A DNA stretch of 64,000 nucleotides from contig VGOM01000007.1 in assembly GCA_016875915.1 (NCBI GenBank), positions 1 to 64,000 on the forward strand. The letters run 5' to 3'. The notes beneath the pieces are model-generated. The model was not told the DNA's origin and ran no database searches. It saw nothing but the letters and a program-made list of their open reading frames with translations. Of this stretch, positions 10,167 through 45,622 are shown piece after piece. This DNA comes from Chloroflexota bacterium. Lineage in GTDB: Bacteria; Chloroflexota; Dehalococcoidia; UBA2247; RBG-13-53-26. How positions within the stretch are numbered: position 1 is the first letter of the stretch; every line of letters begins with the position of its first letter. Both the position numbers and the translations under genes were made by a program.

Positions 10167-10316
10167 GTGTTCTGTGGCACTGGCCCATGTGCATGGGGCT
10201 TCTGGACCGGCGTAGGCATACTGATAGGGGCCGCCGCCTCAGGGGTGGGGCTTCTGGGCTTTCTGCTCTACCGCCGACTGAAGAAGCCCGGCAAGCCGTC
10301 CACGGCTCAACAGTAG
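10167..10316 (+). CDS. Small hydrophobic peptide (49 aa) with CGTGPC motif, one TM helix and a basic tail
   Basis: GTG start 7 nt after a GGAGG RBS. Translation VFCGTGPCAWGFWTGVGILIGAAASGVGLLGFLLYRRLKKPGKPSTAQQ. Not in the ORF track because it is short and GTG-initiated. Confidence 0.4.
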   Translation: MFCGTGPCAWGFWTGVGILIGAAASGVGLLGFLLYRRLKKPGKPSTAQQ

Positions 10317-10448: not shown

Positions 10449-10476
10449 TGGATCCCGCATCAAGTGCGGGATGACA
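10449..10476. repeat. Conserved hairpin motif, copy 1 (TGGATCCCGCATCAAGTGCGGGATGACA)
   Basis: Perfect 8-bp stem ATCCCGCA/TGCGGGAT with TCAAG loop, about 80 bp downstream of the minus-strand MoCo gene stop. Same motif at 34546 and 40597. Confidence 0.7.
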
Positions 10477-10551: not shown

Positions 10552-12759
10552 TCAGGAGGCCTTGGCCACTTCGACCAGGGCGGTGTTGTAGGGGAAGGAG
10601 CCGCCGGGTGAGTGCCTGTCAGGGGTGAGGACGTTGGCGCAGCCACCTCTGTCCACGCGGTCCGGATCCGGGGCATACCAGGCCCCGTGGGGCACATCGA
10701 CCACGCCGGGCATGATCCTCTCCGTGACGCGGGCCTTGATGAGTATCTGCCCCCGGTCGTTGAACACCCTGACCATATCGCCATCGTTGATGCCACGAGC
10801 ACGGGCGTCTTCGGAGTTGATCAGCAGGGCATGATCCTGGAGTTCCCTCAGCCAAGGGATGTTCTCGAACTGACTGAGGGCCCGCCTCTTGAGATGGGTG
10901 GTGATCAGCTGCAGCGGGTACTTCCGGGCCAGGGGATCGTTGCGGCCTTCCCAGCTCCCGATGTACTTGGGGACGGCGGGCAGACCGGGTATGCCCAGGT
11001 CCGCCCACTGCCGTGAGTAGATTTCGATCTTCCCCGAGGGAGTGGGGAAGGGGTTGGCGGCCGGGTCTTTCACCTGAGCCCTGAAGGCAACGTAGGGCTC
11101 GATGGTCTTCAAGCGGTACACACCCCGCTTCTTGAAGCGGCGGTAGTCATAGACGCCGTTGTTCATGGCCCGTTCCTGCAGTATCTGCTCCTCAGTCTTG
11201 TCCAGATAGCCCTTGATGCCCAGGCGCTCGGCCAGTTCGGCGGCAATGCGCCAGGGGGGCCGGGATTCCCCCAGTGGTTCGATGACCTTGTTGACGCAGC
11301 CGACGTAGGCCGAGCCCACCCCCGGGGTGACGTCGTTCCTCTCCATGAAGGTGGCCACCGGCAGTATGATGTCGGCGAACTTGGCCGTGGGCGTCATGAA
11401 CTGCTCTTCGACGACGATGAACTCCAGGGAGTTCAGCGCCCGGGCGATCTTGTTGCTGTCGGGGAACTGGACCAGGTAGTTGCACTGGGCGACCACCAGC
11501 GCCTTGTAGTCGGCGAAGTAGCCGCCGGCCCTGCCTCTGAGGATAGCATCAGCCAGCCTGGTGAAGTGGACCCGGGGTCTGCGGTAGAAGAGGGGGACCT
11601 TGCGGTCCGGCGGGAAGGCCCTCTCCACGGGGTTGGGCGCCCGGTCTATGGCGCTGGTCATGGAGTTCACCGGGTAGGGGAAACCACCCATGACCGACTC
11701 CCAGGCCCGGGCTCCGGCGTCCCCGCCGTGGATGCCGACGTTGCCGGTCATGGCGGCCAGGGTGATGGCGGCACGGTGGAACTGCTCGCCGTAGGCGGTG
11801 CGGCCCGGGGCGATGCCAGCCATCAGCGCCGCAGGCCGAGTGGTGGCGTACTGCCGGGCAAGCTCGACGATGGTCCCAGCAGCGACGCCGGTGATACCCT
11901 CCGCCCACTGCGGCGTCTTCGCTACACCATCCTCCGAGCCCAGGACGTAGTCCTTGAACCGGTCGAAGCCGACGGTATGCGCGGCGATGAAGTCCCGGTC
12001 GTAAAGCTTTTCGTCGACCATGACATAGGCCATGGCGATAAGCATGGCAGTGTCCGTCCCCGGCCTGATCGGTATCCAGCTGTCGGCGAAGGCGGCAGCG
12101 CTGTCGGTGTGCCGGGGATCAACGGAGATGATCGTGGTGCCGGCCTCCCGGGCACGGGCCAGATACCAGCAGGTGTTGGGGCCGGTGATGGTGCTGGCCG
12201 GGTCCCAGCCCCACATGATGATCAGCCTGGAGTTGAGTAAATCGTCGCGGGTGTTGCTGGCGAACCAGGTGCCGTAGGTAACCATCGAAGCGTACACCCC
12301 GGCCTGAAAGGAGGTCACTCCCCAGGGCGAGGTGTAGCCGCCGGCCATGCTCAGCAGGCGGTCCAGGGCCCCGAAGTTGTTCAGGGAGCAAACATCACCA
12401 GTCATCTGGGCCAGGATGATGGCTGGCGGACCGTAGGCATCCCTGACCCTCTTCAGCTCGGCGGCAACGGTGTCCAGGGCCTCGTCCCAGGAGGTGCGCT
12501 GGAAGCGGCCCTCCCCCCGGGGACCCGCCCGCTTCAGGGGATAGAGCAGGCGGTCCGGGGCGTAGACCCTCTGGCGGTAGGCCCGCCCCCGGAGGCAGCC
12601 GCGGAGCTGGGGCTCCTCGCCGTCGTCGCTCTCTATCCTGGTGATGACGCCGTCTCTGACGTGGACCTTGAGGAGGCAGGCACCGCCGCAGTGGCTGGCG
12701 CACATGGTGGCGATGACCCTGTCGCCGCCGGTCGATGTGCCGCCTTTGCCGTGACTCAT
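10552..12759 (-). CDS. Molybdopterin (Mo/W-bisPGD) oxidoreductase catalytic subunit, DMSO-reductase family, cytoplasmic, copy 2
   Basis: 735 aa. N-terminal CxxxCxxxC...C [4Fe-4S] motif (CASHCGGACLLKVHVRDG), no twin-arginine signal, C-terminal molybdopterin dinucleotide-binding beta-barrel region. Close paralog of 13226..15436. Confidence 0.85.
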   Translation of the reverse strand: MSHGKGGTSTGGDRVIATMCASHCGGACLLKVHVRDGVITRIESDDGEEPQLRGCLRGRAYRQRVYAPDRLLYPLKRAGPRGEGRFQRTSWDEALDTVAAELKRVRDAYGPPAIILAQMTGDVCSLNNFGALDRLLSMAGGYTSPWGVTSFQAGVYASMVTYGTWFASNTRDDLLNSRLIIMWGWDPASTITGPNTCWYLARAREAGTTIISVDPRHTDSAAAFADSWIPIRPGTDTAMLIAMAYVMVDEKLYDRDFIAAHTVGFDRFKDYVLGSEDGVAKTPQWAEGITGVAAGTIVELARQYATTRPAALMAGIAPGRTAYGEQFHRAAITLAAMTGNVGIHGGDAGARAWESVMGGFPYPVNSMTSAIDRAPNPVERAFPPDRKVPLFYRRPRVHFTRLADAILRGRAGGYFADYKALVVAQCNYLVQFPDSNKIARALNSLEFIVVEEQFMTPTAKFADIILPVATFMERNDVTPGVGSAYVGCVNKVIEPLGESRPPWRIAAELAERLGIKGYLDKTEEQILQERAMNNGVYDYRRFKKRGVYRLKTIEPYVAFRAQVKDPAANPFPTPSGKIEIYSRQWADLGIPGLPAVPKYIGSWEGRNDPLARKYPLQLITTHLKRRALSQFENIPWLRELQDHALLINSEDARARGINDGDMVRVFNDRGQILIKARVTERIMPGVVDVPHGAWYAPDPDRVDRGGCANVLTPDRHSPGGSFPYNTALVEVAKAS

Positions 12760-13225: not shown

Positions 13226-15436
13226 TCAGATCCTTTCTACCTGCACCAGGGTGGTGTTGGAGCAGAAGGCCCCTCCCGGCGAGTGCTCGTCCCGGGTGAG
13301 GACATTGCAGCACCCTCCCCGGTCAACCCCATTCTCGTCGGGGTCATACCAGGCCCCTTGAGGGATGTCGACCACTCCGGGCATGATCCGCTCCGTGACC
13401 CTGGCGGGAATGACCATCCGGCCCCTGTCGTTGAACACCCTGACCATGTCGCCATCATTGATGCCCCTGGCCTGAGCGTCGGCGGAGTTGACGGACACGG
13501 CCTGAGTCTGGAGCTCGCGCAGCCAGGGCAGATTGTCGTACTGGGAGTGGGCCCGCCTCATGATGTGCGTGGTGACAAGCTGCAGCGGGTATCTGGCAGC
13601 AAGGGGATCACGGCGGCTCTCCCAGGTCTCGATGTACCTAGGGATGGGCGGAATCCGGGGATCGTCCATGTCCGCCAGGCGCTGGGAGTAGATCTCGATC
13701 TTGCCGCTGGGGGTGGGGAAGGGATTGTTCTGCGGATCTTCGATCTGAGCCTTGAAGGCCACAAACGGTTCGGCCATCCTCAGCTTGTGGATGCCGTCCT
13801 TCTTGAAGACATCGTAGTCGGCGATGTCGCGGCTGCCCTTGACGATCTCCCGCAGCCAGCCGTCCTCCGTATGCTCGCTGTAGTCGGCGACGCCTAGCTT
13901 CGCGGCCAGATCCATGCCGATCTGCAGGTGTGATCTGGCTTCGCCCGGCGGCTCGGCGGCCTTGTTCATGTAGCCGTAGAATCCCGTAGCGCCGTCCAGG
14001 GCAATGTCGTTCTTCTCCAAGGAGTTGCAGGTGGGCAGGACCAGGTCGGCGAACCTGGCCCCGGGGGTCGTGAACTGCTCGAAGACGACGACGAACTCCA
14101 GGCTCTTCAGGGCCCGGACGGCCTTGTTGACGTCGAGGTACTGATTGGGGTAGTCGGTGTCCACCAGATAGAGCAGCTTGTAGTCGGCGGGGTAGCCGCC
14201 GGCCCTGCCCCTGAGGATGGCATCGGACATCTTGGCGGTGTTGACCTGGCCACGCCTCATGGCCACGCCGAAGGCGGGGAGGGCATTGCGGCGGGGCGGG
14301 GCGTCGGCCTCAACGGGGTTGCGGGGCGATTTCGGACCACGGCCCAGGCTGAAGTAGGCCGTGGGACCGGCGGTGGGCCAGGAGCGTCCACCGGAGCTCC
14401 CGCCGTGGACGCCGACATTGCCGGTCATGGCGGCCAGGACCATGGCCGCCCGGTGATACTGCTCGCCGTAGGCGGTCCGTCCCGGAGCGATGCCGGCGAT
14501 GAGGGCCGCCGGCGTGGCGGTGGCATATTCCCTGGCGAAAGCAGCGATGGTGGCGGCGGGCACGCCGGTGATGGCCTCTGCCCAGGCGGGCGTCTTGGCC
14601 ACACCGTCCTCCAGTCCGAGGACATAGTGCTTGAAGTGATTGAGGCCCACGGTGTAGGTATCCAGAAAGGCCTGGTCCTGCAGGTTCTCCTTGATGATGA
14701 CGTAGGCCATGGCGATGAGCATGGCGGCGTCCGTGCCGGGGACGATGGGGATCCATTGCTGGGAGAAGGTGGCGTTCGATTCGGTGTACCGGGGGTCGAC
14801 GGAGACAATCCTGATCCCGGCCTCCCCGGCCTGGGCCAGGTACCAGGCGGTGTTGGTGTTCTGAATGGTCACCGAGGGATTCCAGCCCCACATGATGATA
14901 AGGCGGGAGTTGAGCAGGTCATCGCGGGTGTTGCCGGTGTCCACGGTGCCGTAGGTAGCCAGCTCGGCGAACAGTCCCCCGTCGAAGGAGAAGGTGCCCC
15001 AGACATCCGAGCAGCCACCGATCATATTCAGCACCTTGTAGTGGCACATGGCGTTGTGCAGCACGGAGGTATCACCTCCGGACCACTTGAAGAGGATGGC
15101 GGCGGGACCGTAGGTCTCCCGGACCCGGTTCAGCTCCCGGGCCAGGGTGTCCAGGGCCTCTTCCCAGGAGATCCGGGTGAACCGGCCCTCTCCGCGCTGG
15201 CCGACTCTCTTCAGAGGGTGCAGCAGCCGGTCGGGGGCATACATCCGCTGGCGGTAGGCCCGGCCGCGAACGCAGGCCCGGAACTGGGGATCGGCGCCGT
15301 CATCGGTCTCGATCCTGGCCACGACGCCGTCTTTGACGTGGACCTTGAGGAGGCATGCCCCGCCGCAGTGGCTGGAGTGCGTGGAGTAGATCACCTCCTC
15401 CGAGGCGGGCTGCCGATGGTCATGGTGAGCGCTCAT
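13226..15436 (-). CDS. Molybdopterin (Mo/W-bisPGD) oxidoreductase catalytic subunit, DMSO-reductase family, cytoplasmic, copy 1
   Basis: 736 aa. N-terminal CGGACLLKVHVKDG [4Fe-4S] motif. Collinear paralog of 10552..12759 with long identical blocks (LLNSRLIIMWGW, DRGGC). Confidence 0.85.
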   Translation of the reverse strand: MSAHHDHRQPASEEVIYSTHSSHCGGACLLKVHVKDGVVARIETDDGADPQFRACVRGRAYRQRMYAPDRLLHPLKRVGQRGEGRFTRISWEEALDTLARELNRVRETYGPAAILFKWSGGDTSVLHNAMCHYKVLNMIGGCSDVWGTFSFDGGLFAELATYGTVDTGNTRDDLLNSRLIIMWGWNPSVTIQNTNTAWYLAQAGEAGIRIVSVDPRYTESNATFSQQWIPIVPGTDAAMLIAMAYVIIKENLQDQAFLDTYTVGLNHFKHYVLGLEDGVAKTPAWAEAITGVPAATIAAFAREYATATPAALIAGIAPGRTAYGEQYHRAAMVLAAMTGNVGVHGGSSGGRSWPTAGPTAYFSLGRGPKSPRNPVEADAPPRRNALPAFGVAMRRGQVNTAKMSDAILRGRAGGYPADYKLLYLVDTDYPNQYLDVNKAVRALKSLEFVVVFEQFTTPGARFADLVLPTCNSLEKNDIALDGATGFYGYMNKAAEPPGEARSHLQIGMDLAAKLGVADYSEHTEDGWLREIVKGSRDIADYDVFKKDGIHKLRMAEPFVAFKAQIEDPQNNPFPTPSGKIEIYSQRLADMDDPRIPPIPRYIETWESRRDPLAARYPLQLVTTHIMRRAHSQYDNLPWLRELQTQAVSVNSADAQARGINDGDMVRVFNDRGRMVIPARVTERIMPGVVDIPQGAWYDPDENGVDRGGCCNVLTRDEHSPGGAFCSNTTLVQVERI

Positions 15437-24222: not shown

Positions 24223-24921
24223 ATGGCCATCGAAGTCGCGCTGCTGAAGTCGATACCGTACTTCCTGGGTTTGAGCACAGCGGAGCTCGAAGCCATCAGG
24301 AAGTACGTCTTCGAGCAGGCCGTGGGAAAGAACGACATGATCCTCATGGAGGGGGACCCGGCCAATGCGGTCTACTTCGTGGTCTCAGGGGCGGTGAAGG
24401 TCTTCAAGACGTCGGTTGAAGGCAAGGAGCAGATCCTGTGCATCCTCAGGCCGGGCGAGTCTTTCAATGACGTTGCCGTGTTCGACGGCGGCCCCAATCC
24501 GGCCAGCGCCATAGCCATGACCCCGGTGCTCCTCTACGGGATAAACAGGGCCAACGTGGAGACCATCCTCAGGGACTACCCCAACCTGGCCGCCAACGTG
24601 ATCAGGATCCTCTCCAAGAAGGTGCGCCACTTCGTGTCGCTGGTGGAGGACCTGTCGTTCCGGCACGTCACCGACAGATTGGCCAAGCTTCTTCTGGAGT
24701 ACGCCACGGACCACGGCACCGTCGCCGGGGAGCCCGGGGCGCGCCCGAGGCTGACCCAGCAGGAGATGGCCGCCGTGGTGGGCACGGCCCGGGAGGTGGT
24801 GGGCCGGTCTCTCAAGGCGCTGGAGGAAGAAGGGGCCATCAGGATGGACCGGCACCGGATCGTCATCGTCAACAAGAAGCGTCTGGAGCAGATGAGCGGG
24901 GTCGGGGCCGGGTCCGGCTAG
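24223..24921 (+). CDS. Crp/Fnr family transcriptional regulator
   Basis: cNMP-binding beta-roll region followed by a C-terminal HTH (REVVGRSLKALEEEG). No N-terminal FNR-type Cys cluster. Confidence 0.8.
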   Translation: MAIEVALLKSIPYFLGLSTAELEAIRKYVFEQAVGKNDMILMEGDPANAVYFVVSGAVKVFKTSVEGKEQILCILRPGESFNDVAVFDGGPNPASAIAMTPVLLYGINRANVETILRDYPNLAANVIRILSKKVRHFVSLVEDLSFRHVTDRLAKLLLEYATDHGTVAGEPGARPRLTQQEMAAVVGTAREVVGRSLKALEEEGAIRMDRHRIVIVNKKRLEQMSGVGAGSG

Positions 24922-24997: not shown

Positions 24998-25225
24998 ATG
25001 CTGGTGAAGCCTATCCTGGATGAGGCGCTGTGCAATGGATGCGGGCTGTGTGTGGACGTCTGCCGGTGCGGGGCCCTGGTCCTGGTGAAGAAGATCATCA
25101 AGATCATCGAGGCAGAAGACTGCGGCTACTGCACCCAGTGCGAGCTGGTTTGCCCCACCGGGGCGATCCAGTGCCCATTCGAGATAGTGATCGAGGAAAC
25201 CATCGAGATAGGCCCTGAGGAGTAG
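24998..25225 (+). CDS. 2x[4Fe-4S] ferredoxin
   Basis: 75 aa with CNGCGLCVDVC and CGYCTQCELVCP motifs. Confidence 0.85.
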   Translation: MLVKPILDEALCNGCGLCVDVCRCGALVLVKKIIKIIEAEDCGYCTQCELVCPTGAIQCPFEIVIEETIEIGPEE

Positions 25226-32539: not shown

Positions 32540-33730
32540 TCAGAGGGACCTCAGCGACTCCGCGACTCTGATCTGGGAGGCCCGGAACGCGGGGTACACG
32601 CTGGCCACCGCGGCCACCAGGACAGCCAGGCCGAGTGCGGGGCCCAGATACTGCAGTTCGTAGGCCACGGCCAGGTCGTCGAAGATGAGGGGGCCGATGA
32701 CGTAGGACAGCAGGGTCCCGGCCGCGTATCCCAGCAAGCCCCCGATGACGCCGACGCCGATGGCCTCATAGACGAACATTCGGACGATCTGGCGGCGGGA
32801 AGCCCCGACGGCTTTCATGATGCCGATGTCTCTGACACGCTCGTGCACCGAGGAGATCATGGTATTGACCACCCCGAATGCTCCCACGATCAGGGTGATC
32901 CCGGCCAGAGTGATCATGAAACGGTTCACCTTGTTGACCAGATTCATCTCGGTCTCGGCTATCTGCCTCACGGCCACGGCGCGGACCCCGGGGATCTCCT
33001 CATTGATCATGTCGGCGATGTCCACCGCGGGACAGGCGGAGCACAGTGCCCGGATATCGGCCGCGGAAACCAGTCCTTCCCTGGCGAACAGTCTCTGAAC
33101 CGTGGGCAAGGGCACGAACACATGATAGTCATCATTGGAGCCGGTCTCCCCCAGCACACCGACAACGGTGGTCTGCTCCCCCCCGAGGAGGAGGGTGTCC
33201 CCCACGCCGAGGCGGAGCGATGCACTGGCCCTGGCACCGAGAACGGCCTCATCGGCCTGTTCCACATACCTGCCTTCAGACACGATCCACCAGGTCTTGA
33301 CAAGCCTTTCCTGCTCCGGATCAATGCCTACTACCATGGCGGACGTACCCTGCAGTTCAGTGTCCACGTAGAGCTTGGGGGCGATAGTGGCAATATCACC
33401 TTCATCCTGGATGTCGAGGGCCTCCCGTATGGCGTCATCGGCAATCCGTCTGACCTCAAGCAGTTTCTCTTCCGCAAAGTAGTTGTCGCCTATGGCCAGG
33501 GTCCCCAGGCGCAGGTCCCCCAACTGTAGATCCAGGTCGCTGACCGCCGGAGTGACCATCAGGTTCGGGCCGTACTTGTCGATTTCAGCATAGACCCTGT
33601 CCTCACCGGCCCGGGCCACGGTGAGCACGGCCACGAAGGCGGCCACGCCGATGGCCACGCCAAGCGCCGTGTAGAGCACGCGCCGCTTCCGGCGCAGCGC
33701 ATCCTTGAACACCACCTGAAGCAACTTCAT
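32540..33730 (-). CDS. ABC transporter permease, FtsX/MacB-like
   Basis: 396 aa: N-terminal TM helix, large extracytoplasmic domain, C-terminal FtsX-type 3-TM bundle. Confidence 0.8.
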   Translation of the reverse strand: MKLLQVVFKDALRRKRRVLYTALGVAIGVAAFVAVLTVARAGEDRVYAEIDKYGPNLMVTPAVSDLDLQLGDLRLGTLAIGDNYFAEEKLLEVRRIADDAIREALDIQDEGDIATIAPKLYVDTELQGTSAMVVGIDPEQERLVKTWWIVSEGRYVEQADEAVLGARASASLRLGVGDTLLLGGEQTTVVGVLGETGSNDDYHVFVPLPTVQRLFAREGLVSAADIRALCSACPAVDIADMINEEIPGVRAVAVRQIAETEMNLVNKVNRFMITLAGITLIVGAFGVVNTMISSVHERVRDIGIMKAVGASRRQIVRMFVYEAIGVGVIGGLLGYAAGTLLSYVIGPLIFDDLAVAYELQYLGPALGLAVLVAAVASVYPAFRASQIRVAESLRSL

Positions 33731-33905
33731 CCAGCCTCTACCTCCCGGCTAGAATAACACGATAATCATTATCATGTTAGTCATAAATTATCATGGGCTC
33801 CAGGCCTTGTCAAGCGATTCCGTGATCCTGAAACGAAGGGGGAGTCAGTCGGCGTCCATCAACAGAAGTCAGGGGCCGGGCCGAGGATTCACCGCCGAAT
33901 CGGTG

Positions 33906-34145
33906 CTACTTCCGCCTGCTTCTGGCCGACGACCCAGACCGGCGGGGCGATCCGGCCCTGGCCGCCTCAAGCATGGTCTCCCACTTGCCTTCGCTCGGCA
34001 GCGGACGGCCGGCCTGCTGCGGGCTGTAGTGGTCGAGATACATCAGATTGCCGCACTGGACACAGTTCTCGTACCACTCACCGAGGTAACTGCCCATCAT
34101 GAGTATGCCTCCGCACTTGGGGCACTTCCGCGAACTGAGACCCAT
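33906..34145 (-). CDS. Small zinc-ribbon protein (80 aa), locus B partner
   Basis: Start taken at MGLSSRKCPKCGG. The CxxC-x19-CVQCGNLMYLDHY pattern echoes CQSCGTQKQFHNY in 45090..45368. Confidence 0.5.
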   Translation of the reverse strand: MGLSSRKCPKCGGILMMGSYLGEWYENCVQCGNLMYLDHYSPQQAGRPLPSEGKWETMLEAARAGSPRRSGSSARSRRK

Positions 34146-34213
34146 AACTGCACCTCTCCTTCCTGGTCTTCCGGGGAACTGCCTATGACGATAGTCCAGC
34201 GGGCATCTCCAGT

Positions 34214-34231
34214 CTGTGACCGCGGTCACAG
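34214..34231. promoter_or_regulatory. Perfect 18-bp palindrome CTGTGACCGCGGTCACAG (candidate operator)
   Basis: Exact dyad symmetry about 70-85 bp upstream of the zinc-ribbon gene start. Confidence 0.45.
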
Positions 34232-34545
34232 TCGGCATGAGAGTGAAGCAATGAACAGGCGGCACTTGCAGTCCGGCAACCCCCGTGTTATGATGGCATC
34301 AACAACTGAATAGACGATACATAGAGTCCAACGGGTCATAGCTCAACGGTTACAGCCAAACTAGGAGAAAGAAAGGGCCGATCTGAGCACTCAAGCGGAC
34401 TCTTTTCTTTTGCCCAGAACCGTCTGGAGTCAGCTGGCTTGGACTAGCCGAGACTCCACCCCGTCACCCCTGGAGGGAACCGGACAGACTGCCTCCATCG
34501 GGCTGGCAATACCACCACTGATTCGAGATTCGTCTTTGCGGGAAG

Positions 34546-34573
34546 TGGATGACGCATCAAGTGCGGCGTGACT
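34546..34573. repeat. Conserved hairpin motif, copy 2 (TGGATGACGCATCAAGTGCGGCGTGACT)
   Basis: Same loop TCAAG and GCA/TGC stem core as copies 1 and 3, with one mismatch and one G-U wobble. About 160 bp downstream of the minus-strand 5-Cys gene stop. Confidence 0.6.
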
Positions 34574-34729
34574 TGGGGCGAGTGCCGGGAGGGGCACGAG
34601 CCATACGCAAGGTGCAACCTGGGCGCGCATGTACCGGCAGCAAGAGGAGTGCACCGGCCAGCGGGAACTGTGTGACACGCAAATGCCCGCCCGGGGACAG
34701 GGGAGACAGTCCCCGTTGGCGGTCCGGGA

Positions 34730-34984
34730 TCAGCCGTAGCTGAACTGCTGCTCCGGCTCGGATCTCCTCACCCGCCGGTGAGTCACTATGGATGGCACGT
34801 GCATACAGCCGATAAGGCGGTCGGCGAGGTCCTGGCAATCACTCATGTAACGGCAGTTGCGGCAGTCGTCGTTCGTCCTGCTGCAGGCGAAGGCCCAGCG
34901 TTCAATTAGCTTGTCGTCGTCCTTCTTGGGATACCACCTGGCCCATCTCTGTCGTCCACTGGATTTCTCTCCCATTACGCGCAT
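34730..34984 (-). CDS. Small 5-Cys protein, family member B (84 aa)
   Basis: Start at MRVMGEK with GGAGGAG RBS. RQRWARWYPKKDDDKLIERWAFACSRTNDDCRNCRYMSDCQDLADRLIGCM aligns with 45374..45622 at identical Cys positions 34/41/44/50/60. Confidence 0.65.
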   Translation of the reverse strand: MRVMGEKSSGRQRWARWYPKKDDDKLIERWAFACSRTNDDCRNCRYMSDCQDLADRLIGCMHVPSIVTHRRVRRSEPEQQFSYG

Positions 34985-35111
34985 GCCTCTGTCTCCTCCT
35001 TCTGAAAAGGGGGGATGGTTTTGGAATAGGGCAAGCATAGGGGAGGGAGATTAGCTCCAGATGAGGGCAACCTTAGAAGAGCCTTAGAGTTTTGTCACAG
35101 AGCGGAGGCCG

Positions 35112-35139
35112 TGTTATACTTTTACCAGTTCAAGTATAA
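35112..35139. promoter_or_regulatory. 9-bp inverted repeat GTTATACTT-N10-AAGTATAAC (candidate GntR-type operator)
   Basis: Perfect inverted repeat about 25-50 bp upstream of the GntR-PBP regulator ATG, in the divergent intergenic region. Confidence 0.4.
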
Positions 35140-35163
35140 CAATATCCAGCGATCGGCACCGGC

Positions 35164-36360
35164 ATGGCAGCACGCAAGACAACCGCCCAAACCCCGCCTG
35201 AGGGGAAGTCAACGGCCATTCTCCTCGGCGACACCGCTCACTCCCCGCTCTTCACCCAGATAGTGGCACAGGTGAGGCAACTGGTAGCCACTGGCAGGCT
35301 GAAGCCAGGCGAACGCTTGCCCACCGTCAGGGAATTGGCGGACACCCTCGGGGTCAGCCCCGGCACAGTGGTCAGGGCCTATCTCGATCTGGAGAAGCAG
35401 GGGGTTGTCCAGTCCAGGCGAGGGGCGGGCACGTTCGTCTCCGCCAGTGTCGGACGTCCCGGAGCGTCTGCGCTGCGCAGGGGCCAGCTCTCCAACATAG
35501 TGAGCGGCAGCATCCTGGAAGCCCTGACTCTGGGCTTTGAGCCCGATGAAGTGGAGGCGGCCTTCTCGGTGCACCTGGCCCGCTGGCGCGAGGAGCGACA
35601 GCGGCTAGCAGCCACACCACCGAAGAGAGGCAGGAACGGGAACAAGACGATTGCCATTGTCGCCAGCCATGACCTGGCGCTCAACCTTCTGGTGAGCCAT
35701 CTCAAACAGCGCGATCCCCGGACTCGGGTAGAGGTGACCTATGCCGGAAGCCTGGGCAGCCTGATCGCCCTGCAGGGCGGAAGGGCCGACATAGCCGGCA
35801 TCCACCTCCTGGATGGTGAGACCGGGGAATACAACTGCCCCTACGTGAAGCACGTCCTCCCCAACCAGGAGGTGGCCGTAGTGCACCTCGCCTACAGAGT
35901 GCAGGGCATGATGTTCGCCGCGGGCAACCCCAAGCGGATCAAGGGACTGGAGGACCTGAAGCGTCCCGATGTCAGGATGCTCAACCGCCAGAAGGGCTCG
36001 GGGACCCGGGTACTGCTGGACTTCCAGTTGCAGCAACTGGGGATAGCGCCGCGTGACGTTCAGGGATACGAAACAGAGGTGGACACCCATCTGGCTGTGG
36101 CCGACGGCGTGGCCCGGGGAGAGGCAGACGTGGGCATGGGCATCGAGGCGGCCGCCAGAGCCTGCGGGGCCGACTTCCTGCCACTGTTCAGGGAGAGATA
36201 CGACCTGATCATCCCGATGGAGACCTACAAGAGCAGGCGGCTGTCCCATCTCCTGGAGATCGTAGCCAGCGAGGATTTCAGAAGGGTGGTGGCCGAGACC
36301 GGGGGCTATGACACCTCACAGACCGGGGCGACCACCTTCTGCAGATACGAGAAGAACTAG
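35164..36360 (+). CDS. GntR-family HTH regulator fused to a periplasmic-binding-protein-like (tungstate/molybdate-binding-like) domain
   Basis: N-terminal winged HTH (LPTVRELADTLGVSPGTVVRAYLDLE), C-terminal PBP type-2-like domain. Sits immediately upstream of tupABC. Confidence 0.75.
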   Translation: MAARKTTAQTPPEGKSTAILLGDTAHSPLFTQIVAQVRQLVATGRLKPGERLPTVRELADTLGVSPGTVVRAYLDLEKQGVVQSRRGAGTFVSASVGRPGASALRRGQLSNIVSGSILEALTLGFEPDEVEAAFSVHLARWREERQRLAATPPKRGRNGNKTIAIVASHDLALNLLVSHLKQRDPRTRVEVTYAGSLGSLIALQGGRADIAGIHLLDGETGEYNCPYVKHVLPNQEVAVVHLAYRVQGMMFAAGNPKRIKGLEDLKRPDVRMLNRQKGSGTRVLLDFQLQQLGIAPRDVQGYETEVDTHLAVADGVARGEADVGMGIEAAARACGADFLPLFRERYDLIIPMETYKSRRLSHLLEIVASEDFRRVVAETGGYDTSQTGATTFCRYEKN

Positions 36361-36566
36361 GCACTCCGAGCCCTGACCCCTAGGGGCGGTGAGCCTACGG
36401 GGCAGCGGCCGGCAGGGTATCGCGGGAAACGGCGATGCCTCCCTCAGCTTGGAAAGGAGTGTATGGCTAGAAGGGCAGGCCCGGAATGCCGGGCGCCACC
36501 GGGTACGGATTGATGTCTTTGATGCGATCGGCCCCATGTTTATGTAAATAAAGGACAGAAGGATCA

Positions 36567-40596: not shown

Positions 40597-40624
40597 TGGA
40601 TGCCGCATCAAGTGCGGCATGACA
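40597..40624. repeat. Conserved hairpin motif, copy 3 (TGGATGCCGCATCAAGTGCGGCATGACA)
   Basis: Perfect 8-bp stem ATGCCGCA/TGCGGCAT with TCAAG loop. Differs from copy 1 by a compensatory C-G to G-C swap. About 80 bp downstream of the lepA stop. Shares the upstream CCACCC flank with copy 1. Confidence 0.7.
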
Positions 40625-45373: not shown

Positions 45374-45622
45374 ATGGGGATGGCGGATGATATCCAGGGT
45401 GTGAGGCGGCGATGGGCCAGGTGGTATCCCAAGAAGCAGGATGACACCATAATTGAGCGCTGGGCCCGGGCTTGTAGTAGAATTAATAACGACTGTCGGG
45501 ACTGCGGTTTCGGCGAGGAGTGTCAGGACCTTGCCGACCGTCTCATTGTATGCATGACGGCATTACCGGGCAGAGGCGGACGCCGACAGAGAGGGCAGGA
45601 TCCCGGTCAAGGCAGCAACTGA
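45374..45622 (+). CDS. Small 5-Cys protein, family member A (82 aa)
   Basis: RRRWARWYPKKQDDTIIERWARACSRINNDCRDCGFGEECQDLADRLIVCM. Paralog of 34730..34984. Immediately upstream of dnaJ-clpB. Confidence 0.65.
   Translation: MGMADDIQGVRRRWARWYPKKQDDTIIERWARACSRINNDCRDCGFGEECQDLADRLIVCMTALPGRGGRRQRGQDPGQGSN

Follow-up and report, generated by a model that had tools for sequence, protein, structure and literature searches.

The intergenic gap of 584 nucleotides (nt) at positions 34146-34729 of contig VGOM01000007.1, from a Chloroflexota bacterium of the class Dehalococcoidia, is probably a composite spacer, in which two independent functional units, a gene for an unannotated small RNA (sRNA) and a CRP-type promoter, share the space with one repeat element. 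The gap was analysed as part of a 64-kb stretch of this contig (positions 1 to 64,000), which as a whole is referred to as the window and to which all position numbers refer. It lies between two small genes on the minus strand, one for a 79-amino-acid (aa) zinc-ribbon protein, which would be the target of the CRP-type promoter, and the other for an 84-aa cysteine-rich protein. As far as can be judged from sequence comparison, there is a good chance that both the sRNA and the CRP-type operator are real, while our confidence in the way in which the RNA would act is much lower.

Conservation of the gap

Homologues of the zinc-ribbon protein, falling into 16 clusters, led to about 25 further metagenome contigs from roughly ten lineages, which all agree in their gene order. 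In every syntenic relative, 441-747 nt separate the gene of the 84-aa protein from the zinc-ribbon gene, and the identical 584-nt gap is present in eight metagenome contigs, which therefore represent the same strain. In an alignment of 11 gaps from related lineages, most of the spacer proved to be unalignable and variable in length, so that between the stop codon of the 84-aa gene and position 34412 a mere 5-23% of the window bases could be matched. Within this otherwise unalignable sequence, three islands are conserved in a comparison with about 12 related Dehalococcoidia-type lineages, namely the sRNA block, a CRP-type palindrome and a REP-like (repetitive extragenic palindromic) hairpin. 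Our reading of the gap draws on what was observed in these comparisons: the conservation pattern, the spacing of the elements, their motif matches, their copy number and their absence from Rfam.

The initial annotation of this region had remarked on about 580 bp devoid of a plausible open reading frame (ORF), and this description holds. None of the six ORFs in or overlapping the gap has a Pfam match, and none is conserved, as the flanking spacer is unalignable and variable in length; a 37-aa minus-strand ORF (34226-34339), for example, loses its ATG in relatives. Conservation in relatives, whose absence the same annotation had counted against its reading, is seen for key parts of the region and speaks for the finding. 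The Rfam scan that it had proposed speaks against it, since Rfam 15 at the gathering threshold returned nothing in the region, its sole match in the window being a riboswitch at 36352-36475, and a search at E<=10 over 33700-35200 returned sub-threshold chance matches only. The best match inside the sRNA was ctRNA_p42d, which at 18.4 bits stays below its gathering score of 50 and covers only the terminator-like part. ARAGORN found no tRNA or tmRNA in the window, despite a D-arm-like string, AGCUCAACGGUUA, and folding of the whole region was no better than that of dinucleotide-shuffled sequences (z = -0.14 on the plus and +0.84 on the minus strand), contrary to the earlier description of the region as structure-rich.

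The predicted small-RNA gene

Judged by the alignments, the strongest signal of the gap is the block 34260-34412, which the initial annotation had overlooked and whose identity to relatives (81-96%) is on par with that of the flanking coding sequences. The following features are predicted within the block:

34266-34294, plus strand: predicted sRNA promoter, with -35 hexamer TTGCAG (34266-34271), 17-nt spacer, extended -10 element TGn (34286-34288) and -10 hexamer TATGAT (34289-34294)
about 34301-34411, plus strand: predicted unannotated small RNA of about 110 nt (from alignments, consensus fold and covariance model)
34323-34403, plus strand: imperfect hairpin of 81 nt in the sRNA (consensus fold from alignments)
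34403-34411, plus strand: U-tract of the sRNA, UUUUCUUUU, into which the basal 7-bp stem runs directly

According to the proposed model, a sigma-70-type promoter with an extended -10 element (34266-34294) would drive a plus-strand transcript of about 110 nt from a stand-alone sRNA gene, transcription and both ends of the RNA being predicted from these signals. The TTGC, TG and TATSAT positions of the promoter are invariant across the 11 aligned gaps, and its -35 hexamer matches the consensus at three of six positions, which leaves it below the threshold of the promoter scan. The RNA would begin with a 5' tail of about 22 nt, variable apart from an invariant AAUAG, and continue into the hairpin, in which the basal stem P1 (AGAGUCC/GGACUCU) is followed by the stems GGGU/ACUC, GCUCA/UGAGC and CGGUU/GGCCG, with an A/G-rich apical loop of 24 nt at the end. 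Across the gap alignment, relatives differ in the apical loop, in one internal loop and in the 5' tail, but not in the stems. Because the U-tract directly follows the 7-bp basal stem, the hairpin would double as an intrinsic terminator, and the U-tract after this stem is present on the plus strand in every lineage. The terminator scan missed it, as the stem closes an 81-nt hairpin and not a loop of 3-8 nt. The GC content of the sRNA (0.48) can be compared with that of the window (0.635).

A covariance model, R1, built from 11 sequences, scored exactly one copy of the sRNA per locus at 124-148 bits and detected no paralogue in the window. Among 185,579 species-representative genomes, a 21-mer of the sRNA core matched in one, an uncultured Dehalococcoidia metagenome-assembled genome (MAG; locus L026), and scans of DNA with the exact core added one extra metagenome contig; no match to the exact core was found among viral contigs, and a protein-based genome scan gave no further homologues. 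In L026, the sRNA lies between a gene for a major facilitator superfamily (MFS) transporter and a DUF169 gene, together with its own promoter (TGgTAAGAT) and U-tract, and the zinc-ribbon gene, the 84-aa gene and the palindrome are all missing from this locus. The reverse situation was found in the distant locus L033, which has the zinc-ribbon gene and the CRP box and lacks the sRNA. Since the sRNA occurs in L026 without its usual neighbours and is not found next to the DUF169 genes of three other loci, it behaves as an independent gene and not as the leader of a neighbour. The suggestion of a small regulatory RNA, made in the initial annotation, is thus upheld on the plus strand at 34301-34411, whereas it fails for the hairpins at 34414-34457 that had been pointed out there, as these are specific to the lineage.

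In regard to the mode of action, the RNA would most likely act in trans, by base-pairing through the exposed 5' tail containing AAUAG and/or through the purine-rich apical loop; alternatively, it could be bound by a protein that reads the sequence-invariant helix. A related and rather doubtful possibility is that the RNA is a structured RNA of the housekeeping type that binds protein and forms a new class in Dehalococcoidia, perhaps one of the Rfam-less sRNAs of Dehalococcoides mccartyi discussed below; its helices would then be invariant in sequence because a partner protein or the tertiary fold reads them. Queries for the RNA chaperones Hfq, CsrA, ProQ and KhpA matched nothing in the window or in the loci of relatives, which make up a small part of the genome, so that this negative carries little weight.

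The palindrome and the predicted zinc-ribbon promoter

The second conserved island is a perfect 18-bp palindrome, CTGTGACCGCGGTCACAG, which the initial annotation had already singled out and which proved to be unique upon a search for other occurrences in the window. It belongs to the following set of features:

34214-34231, core 34215-34230, no strand assigned: candidate CRP-type operator, TGTGA-N6-TCACA, lying within CTGTGACCGCGGTCACAG (exact consensus match; centre 34222.5)
34188-34193, minus strand: predicted -10 hexamer of the zinc-ribbon gene, TATCGT (conserved as TATCGT, TAACTT or TATGGT)
34146-34181, minus strand: predicted 5' untranslated region of the zinc-ribbon gene (a block without indels in relatives, the start near 34181 being predicted)
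34160-34153, minus strand: Shine-Dalgarno sequence of the zinc-ribbon gene, AGGAGAGG
24223-24921, plus strand: CRP-family regulator, candidate binder of the palindrome (from structure relatives and recognition-helix alignment)

About 0.24 perfect 18-bp palindromes would be expected by chance in 64 kb by our arithmetic, and the exact pattern TGTGA-N6-TCACA occurs once in the window, with 0.04 occurrences expected. The palindrome is significant because it is conserved, not because it exists: every one of the 26 syntenic loci (26/26) has a single copy of TGTGAC-N4-GTCACA, which is absent from L026. The half-sites TGTGA and TCACA never change, in contrast to the centre, which reads CCGCGG, CAGAGG, CCGTGG or CCCCGG, and TGGAGG in L033. 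A -10-like hexamer always follows exactly 18 nt after GTCACAGAC, also in L033, where no sRNA is present. The centre of the dyad (34222.5) lies 29 nt upstream of the hexamer, which corresponds to a position of about -41.5 for a transcription start 7 nt beyond it. There is no good -35 hexamer at this promoter, and due to its weak -35 the promoter scan did not flag it. The distance between the palindrome and the sRNA promoter, on the other hand, varies by tens of bases among relatives, which ties the site to the predicted promoter of the zinc-ribbon gene.

In class II promoters of the CRP/FNR type, the activator binds as a dimer at -41.5 and overlaps a weak -35. The palindrome would thus probably be the activator site of a CRP-family regulator driving the zinc-ribbon gene: a CRP-family dimer would bind TGTGA-N6-TCACA near -41.5 of this gene, overlap the missing -35 and recruit RNA polymerase to the TATCGT -10 box. 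The dimer would plausibly be formed by the protein encoded at 24223-24921, the candidate binder of the site. Its gene is situated 10 kb from the palindrome in the same conserved neighbourhood, and the protein shows 91% identity to the regulator in the syntenic locus L022. Its best relatives among solved structures are Mycobacterium tuberculosis CRP, GlxR-type regulators, Thermus CRP and Escherichia coli CAP, and its recognition helix, AREVVGR (R-E-x-x-G-R), aligns with SRETVGR of CAP, the TGTGA-contacting Arg, Glu and Arg being kept. A literature search on CRP sites in Dehalococcoidia gave nothing useful.

It is unlikely that the palindrome is instead an RNA hairpin, such as a terminator or a processing site, or a repressor operator. 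The sequence can fold at -12.5 kcal/mol (z = -2.1), and proteins of the CRP family can also repress, as the initial annotation had proposed for the zinc-ribbon gene. The site, however, lies upstream of both predicted transcription starts and would normally be untranscribed, and there are no compensatory changes in its stem, whereas its centre is free to vary. The fixed geometry, with a predicted centre at -41.5 and a weak -35, as established for class II CRP/FNR promoters, argues for activation. From the earlier proposal, the link between operator and gene is therefore retained, given the site in all 26 syntenic loci and in L033 at a fixed spacing to the -10 hexamer, but a repressor is less likely, as the geometry fits a class II activator.

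Alternative explanations and points against the proposed reading

The conserved block could also be read in ways other than as a stand-alone sRNA gene. According to one such explanation, which we regard as quite improbable, the block at 34300-34412 acts in cis, as a structured leader, an attenuator or an orphaned element of the riboswitch type, and controls a downstream gene by termination at the U-tract. The element in L026 indeed lies about 130 nt upstream of a DUF169 gene on the same strand and ends in a terminator-like stem with a U-tract, and its invariant helices resemble a ligand-binding or protein-binding fold. In the other lineages, however, no plus-strand gene follows the element, the next gene being convergent and the spacer unalignable, and no copy was found near DUF169 genes in the three other loci. 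In addition, no alternative antiterminator pairing was seen and no riboswitch in Rfam matched. A structured leader, which the initial annotation had likewise considered, is also difficult to reconcile with the predicted zinc-ribbon promoter located between the RNA block and the gene, and with the occurrence of the RNA without this gene in L026.

Even less probable is that the block acts on the minus strand, as one part of the zinc-ribbon gene's long 5' leader or as an intercistronic element in an operon of the 84-aa and zinc-ribbon genes. In favour of this reading, the two flanking genes are encoded on the minus strand, synteny of the block with them is kept in nearly all lineages, and the folding of the minus strand is almost as good as that of the plus strand. 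The assignment to the plus strand is based on three observations: the promoter and the U-tract are conserved in this orientation only, three invariant G-U pairs would turn into A-C mismatches on the minus strand, and the conserved module of CRP box and -10 hexamer separates the block from the zinc-ribbon gene. A minus-strand element would moreover start with an A-tract and have no conserved promoter upstream, and the block exists without either gene in L026, just as the gene and the box exist without the block in L033. Finally, an action of the block as DNA, for example as a recombination or attachment site or as a platform for several binding proteins, could account for the extreme invariance of primary sequence without covariation and for the different genomic context in L026, but is highly improbable, as promoter-like and terminator-like elements stand in the correct order and on the correct strand in every lineage, invariant stems with variable loops fit a hairpin, and no integrase, transposase or repeat boundary is found near the block, which occurs once per locus.

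With the sRNA gene and the CRP-type promoter as the preferred reading, several points have to be weighed against it. No pair of the predicted sRNA fold covaries (of 21 pairs, 19 are invariant, one shows a one-sided change and one is broken in L026), so the fold is not proven, and we consider this absence of covariation to be uninformative and not contradictory. The relatives are fairly close, with a nucleotide identity of 75-90% in coding sequences, and part of the invariance of block and stems could reflect this limited divergence. The folding energy of the sRNA hairpin is ordinary (z = -1.25), and the mean folding energies on the two strands are nearly equal (-23.6 and -21.9 kcal/mol on plus and minus, respectively), which makes the choice of strand by energy indecisive. 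The consensus scan flagged neither of the two promoters nor the terminator of the sRNA. With the 5' tail and the apical loop as probes, no convincing target of the sRNA was found within the 64-kb window, and pairing with the translation start region of the zinc-ribbon gene was weaker than in shuffled controls in two lineages. In regard to the promoter of the zinc-ribbon gene, the operator position of -41.5 depends on a predicted transcription start. The positions of CAP that contact cAMP (E72, R82 and S83) align with Asp, Pro and Ala in the regulator; as these residues are not conserved, its effector is probably not cAMP.

In the same target search, the best match other than the sRNA itself, at 25044-25068 in the coding region of a ferredoxin, was G-U-rich, used part of P1 and was taken as a chance match.

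The REP-like repeat and the lineage-specific hairpins

The remaining part of the gap, a variable spacer extending from the 3' end of the sRNA to the convergent 84-aa gene, would be filled by the third conserved island, the REP-like repeat, together with hairpins specific to this lineage:

34547-34571, plus strand: degenerate copy of the REP-like hairpin, with two mismatches to the family (consensus GGAUGCCGCA-UCAAG-UGCGGCAUGA)
10450-10474 and 40598-40622, plus strand: further REP-like copies, forming a repeat family of the window
L022 8365-8401 and L034 6632-6668: further REP-like copies in relatives (repeat GGAU(G/C/U)CCGCAUCAAGUGCGG(C/G/A)AUGA)
34414-34457, plus strand: two lineage-specific hairpins, CCAGA/UCUGG (34414-34427) and GGAGUC...GACUCC with inner GGCU/AGCC (34426-34457)

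The degenerate copy of a conserved motif, reported in the initial annotation, was recovered at 34547-34571 and differs at two positions from the family represented by the copies at 10450 and 40598. Members of the family at these two positions and at other loci read GGAU-GCCGCA-UCAAG-UGCGGC-AUGA. The copy in the gap is degenerate in the window and perfect in most relatives, at an unchanged position. Variants at one stem position of the family (G-C, C-G and U-A) are compensatory, which supports a hairpin for the REP-like repeat. With three copies in the window, more in relatives and the hairpin potential kept, the element behaves as a repeat, and all three window copies have the plus orientation and lie between convergently ending transcription units. 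A small ORF was observed just upstream of one of the copies (10168-10316, plus strand), with a good upstream GGAGG; as read by eye, the peptide of about 49 aa that it would encode (VFCGTGPCAWGFW...) is hydrophobic and contains Cys.

The hairpin GGAGUC...GACUCC, preceded by CCAGA-ACCG-UCUGG, is present as the initial annotation had described it. It does not stand out energetically (z = -1.6 on the plus and 0.0 on the minus strand), as 10 of 200 shuffled sequences fold as well, and this too goes against a structure-rich region. The sequence of 34414-34457 cannot be aligned in relatives, and only some of them fold any hairpin at the position of 34426-34457.

Flanking genes and other features of the window

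The genes bordering the gap, and further elements in its surroundings, are the following:

33906-34145, minus strand: gene of the 79-aa zinc-ribbon protein (CPKC...CVQC with a basic C-terminal tail, from translation), predicted target of the CRP-type promoter
34730-34984, minus strand: gene of the 84-aa Cys-rich protein, convergent with the sRNA (invariant C-x6-C-x2-C-x5-C)
34685-34722, minus strand: nested GC-rich hairpins directly after the stop codon of the 84-aa gene (from sequence)
36352-36475, plus strand: Moco (molybdenum/tungsten cofactor) riboswitch (74.7 bits)

All 16 homologue clusters of the zinc-ribbon family share the same synteny. The protein has no significant match in Pfam or NCBIfam, and its structural model, with a predicted local distance difference test (pLDDT) score of 65, gave non-significant fold matches, the best being the Thermus small zinc-finger protein ZifS (E = 0.18), on which a literature search gave nothing useful. 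In many relatives (L015-L025, L028), the gene was called from an internal Met, giving a product of 64 aa. Since MGLSSRxCPKCGG is conserved in the DNA upstream of these calls, a length of about 79 aa is the correct one, and the first CxxC is missing from the shorter version. The JGI name of two zinc-ribbon clusters, 'ribosomal protein S27AE', is apparently an artefact of the zinc ribbon.

The family of the 84-aa protein comprises about 31 clusters with the invariant pattern W..KK.DD..IERWA.ACS-x5-C-x2-C-x5-CQDLADRLI, and its Cys spacing is reminiscent of that in Fe-S-binding WhiB-like proteins. No significant match to the protein was found in Pfam or NCBIfam, and its structural model (pLDDT 54) was unusable. 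A paralogue with 54% identity is encoded at 45374-45622 on the plus strand, immediately upstream of a gene that by eye looks dnaJ-like. The hairpins at 34685-34722, in whose place relatives carry ATCCGCC-CCC-GGCGGAT, may be the terminator of the 84-aa gene; the U-tract is weak.

On the other side of the zinc-ribbon gene, the 175-nt gap towards a MacB-like ABC transporter gene (32540-33730) contains GATAATCATTATC at 33761-33773. The sequence around it is AT-rich, and the operon downstream encodes, among others, an FtrD-like iron-related protein. This 13-mer is unique in the window (0.05 expected) and conserved in L009-L012, and it exactly matches the 3' 13 nt of the classical Fur-box consensus, agreeing at 15 of 19 positions over the full box. 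The match suggests a possible metal-dependent repression of the FtrD-like operon. The Moco riboswitch is situated between a GntR/PBP-like regulator gene and an operon for a molybdate/tungstate-type ABC transporter, so that the genes near the gap include this regulator, the molybdate/tungstate-type and MacB-like ABC transporters, the FtrD-like protein and pyridoxal-phosphate (PLP) enzymes. Elsewhere in the window, tandem paralogues of 735 and 736 aa (10552-12759 and 13226-15436, both on the minus strand) show 71-81% DNA identity at an offset of 2677 nt (repeat families D1-D4 and D9).

Comparison with known systems

The predicted zinc-ribbon promoter resembles known class II CRP promoters, such as those of the E. 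coli CAP galP1 type and those in the regulons of M. tuberculosis CRP (Rv3676) and Corynebacterium glutamicum GlxR. It shares with them the consensus TGTGA-N6-TCACA, a centre about 41.5 bp upstream of the predicted start, a poor -35 that is overlapped by the site, a recognisable -10, and a CRP-family regulator encoded nearby with an R-E-x-x-G-R recognition helix. It differs in the uncultured Dehalococcoidia-type host, in a regulator that lacks the cAMP-contacting Arg and Ser of CAP, and in the target, a lineage-specific 79-aa zinc-ribbon protein, with binding and activation as predictions.

The sRNA gene, for its part, is comparable to divergent, Rho-independently terminated trans-acting sRNAs of the OxyS/oxyR and GcvB/gcvA kind. 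Common to them would be a length of about 110 nt, a promoter of their own (predicted here), a conserved single-stranded 5' segment, a terminal hairpin with a U-tract, a back-to-back arrangement with the promoter of the neighbour and conservation confined to the RNA. In contrast to these systems, the divergent neighbour is a zinc-ribbon protein and not a known regulator, almost the entire RNA consists of one long hairpin with invariant stems, and no relationship to any known sRNA was found in sequence or in Rfam.

The repeat in the gap recalls REP repeats and bacterial interspersed mosaic elements (BIME), being a short imperfect palindrome, repeated intergenically at convergent gene ends in constant orientation and with compensatory changes in the stem. 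Unlike enterobacterial REPs, it has no GTAG head; only three copies are present in 64 kb, and no RAYT-type transposase was seen.

In D. mccartyi CBDB1, the putative sRNA1-3 were described as abundant monocistronic intergenic transcripts with sigma-70-type promoters, highly conserved and without Rfam families (PMC12961961, 2026). By this description, they agree with the RNA predicted here in class, in intergenic location, in a sigma-70-type promoter (predicted here), in conservation and in the absence of an Rfam family. As the core 21-mer was found in the L026 MAG only, out of the 185,579 genomes, the identical core is absent from the D. mccartyi representative, if it is contained in that collection.

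Significance

Dehalococcoidia, and the Chloroflexota in general, are abundant, mostly uncultured and ecologically important bacteria, and to our knowledge their regulatory RNAs are almost uncharted. The locus offers a clean and testable sRNA candidate with a predicted promoter, ends and fold, together with a regulatory link of the CRP type that can be tested as well and for which a site, its geometry, a candidate regulator and a target gene can be named. Annotation pipelines missed the sRNA entirely and, in many relatives, cut the zinc-ribbon gene to 64 aa instead of 79. The CRP promoter itself would represent a textbook architecture in a new host, and the RNA, if the proposed reading is true, would be the founding example of a new sRNA family.

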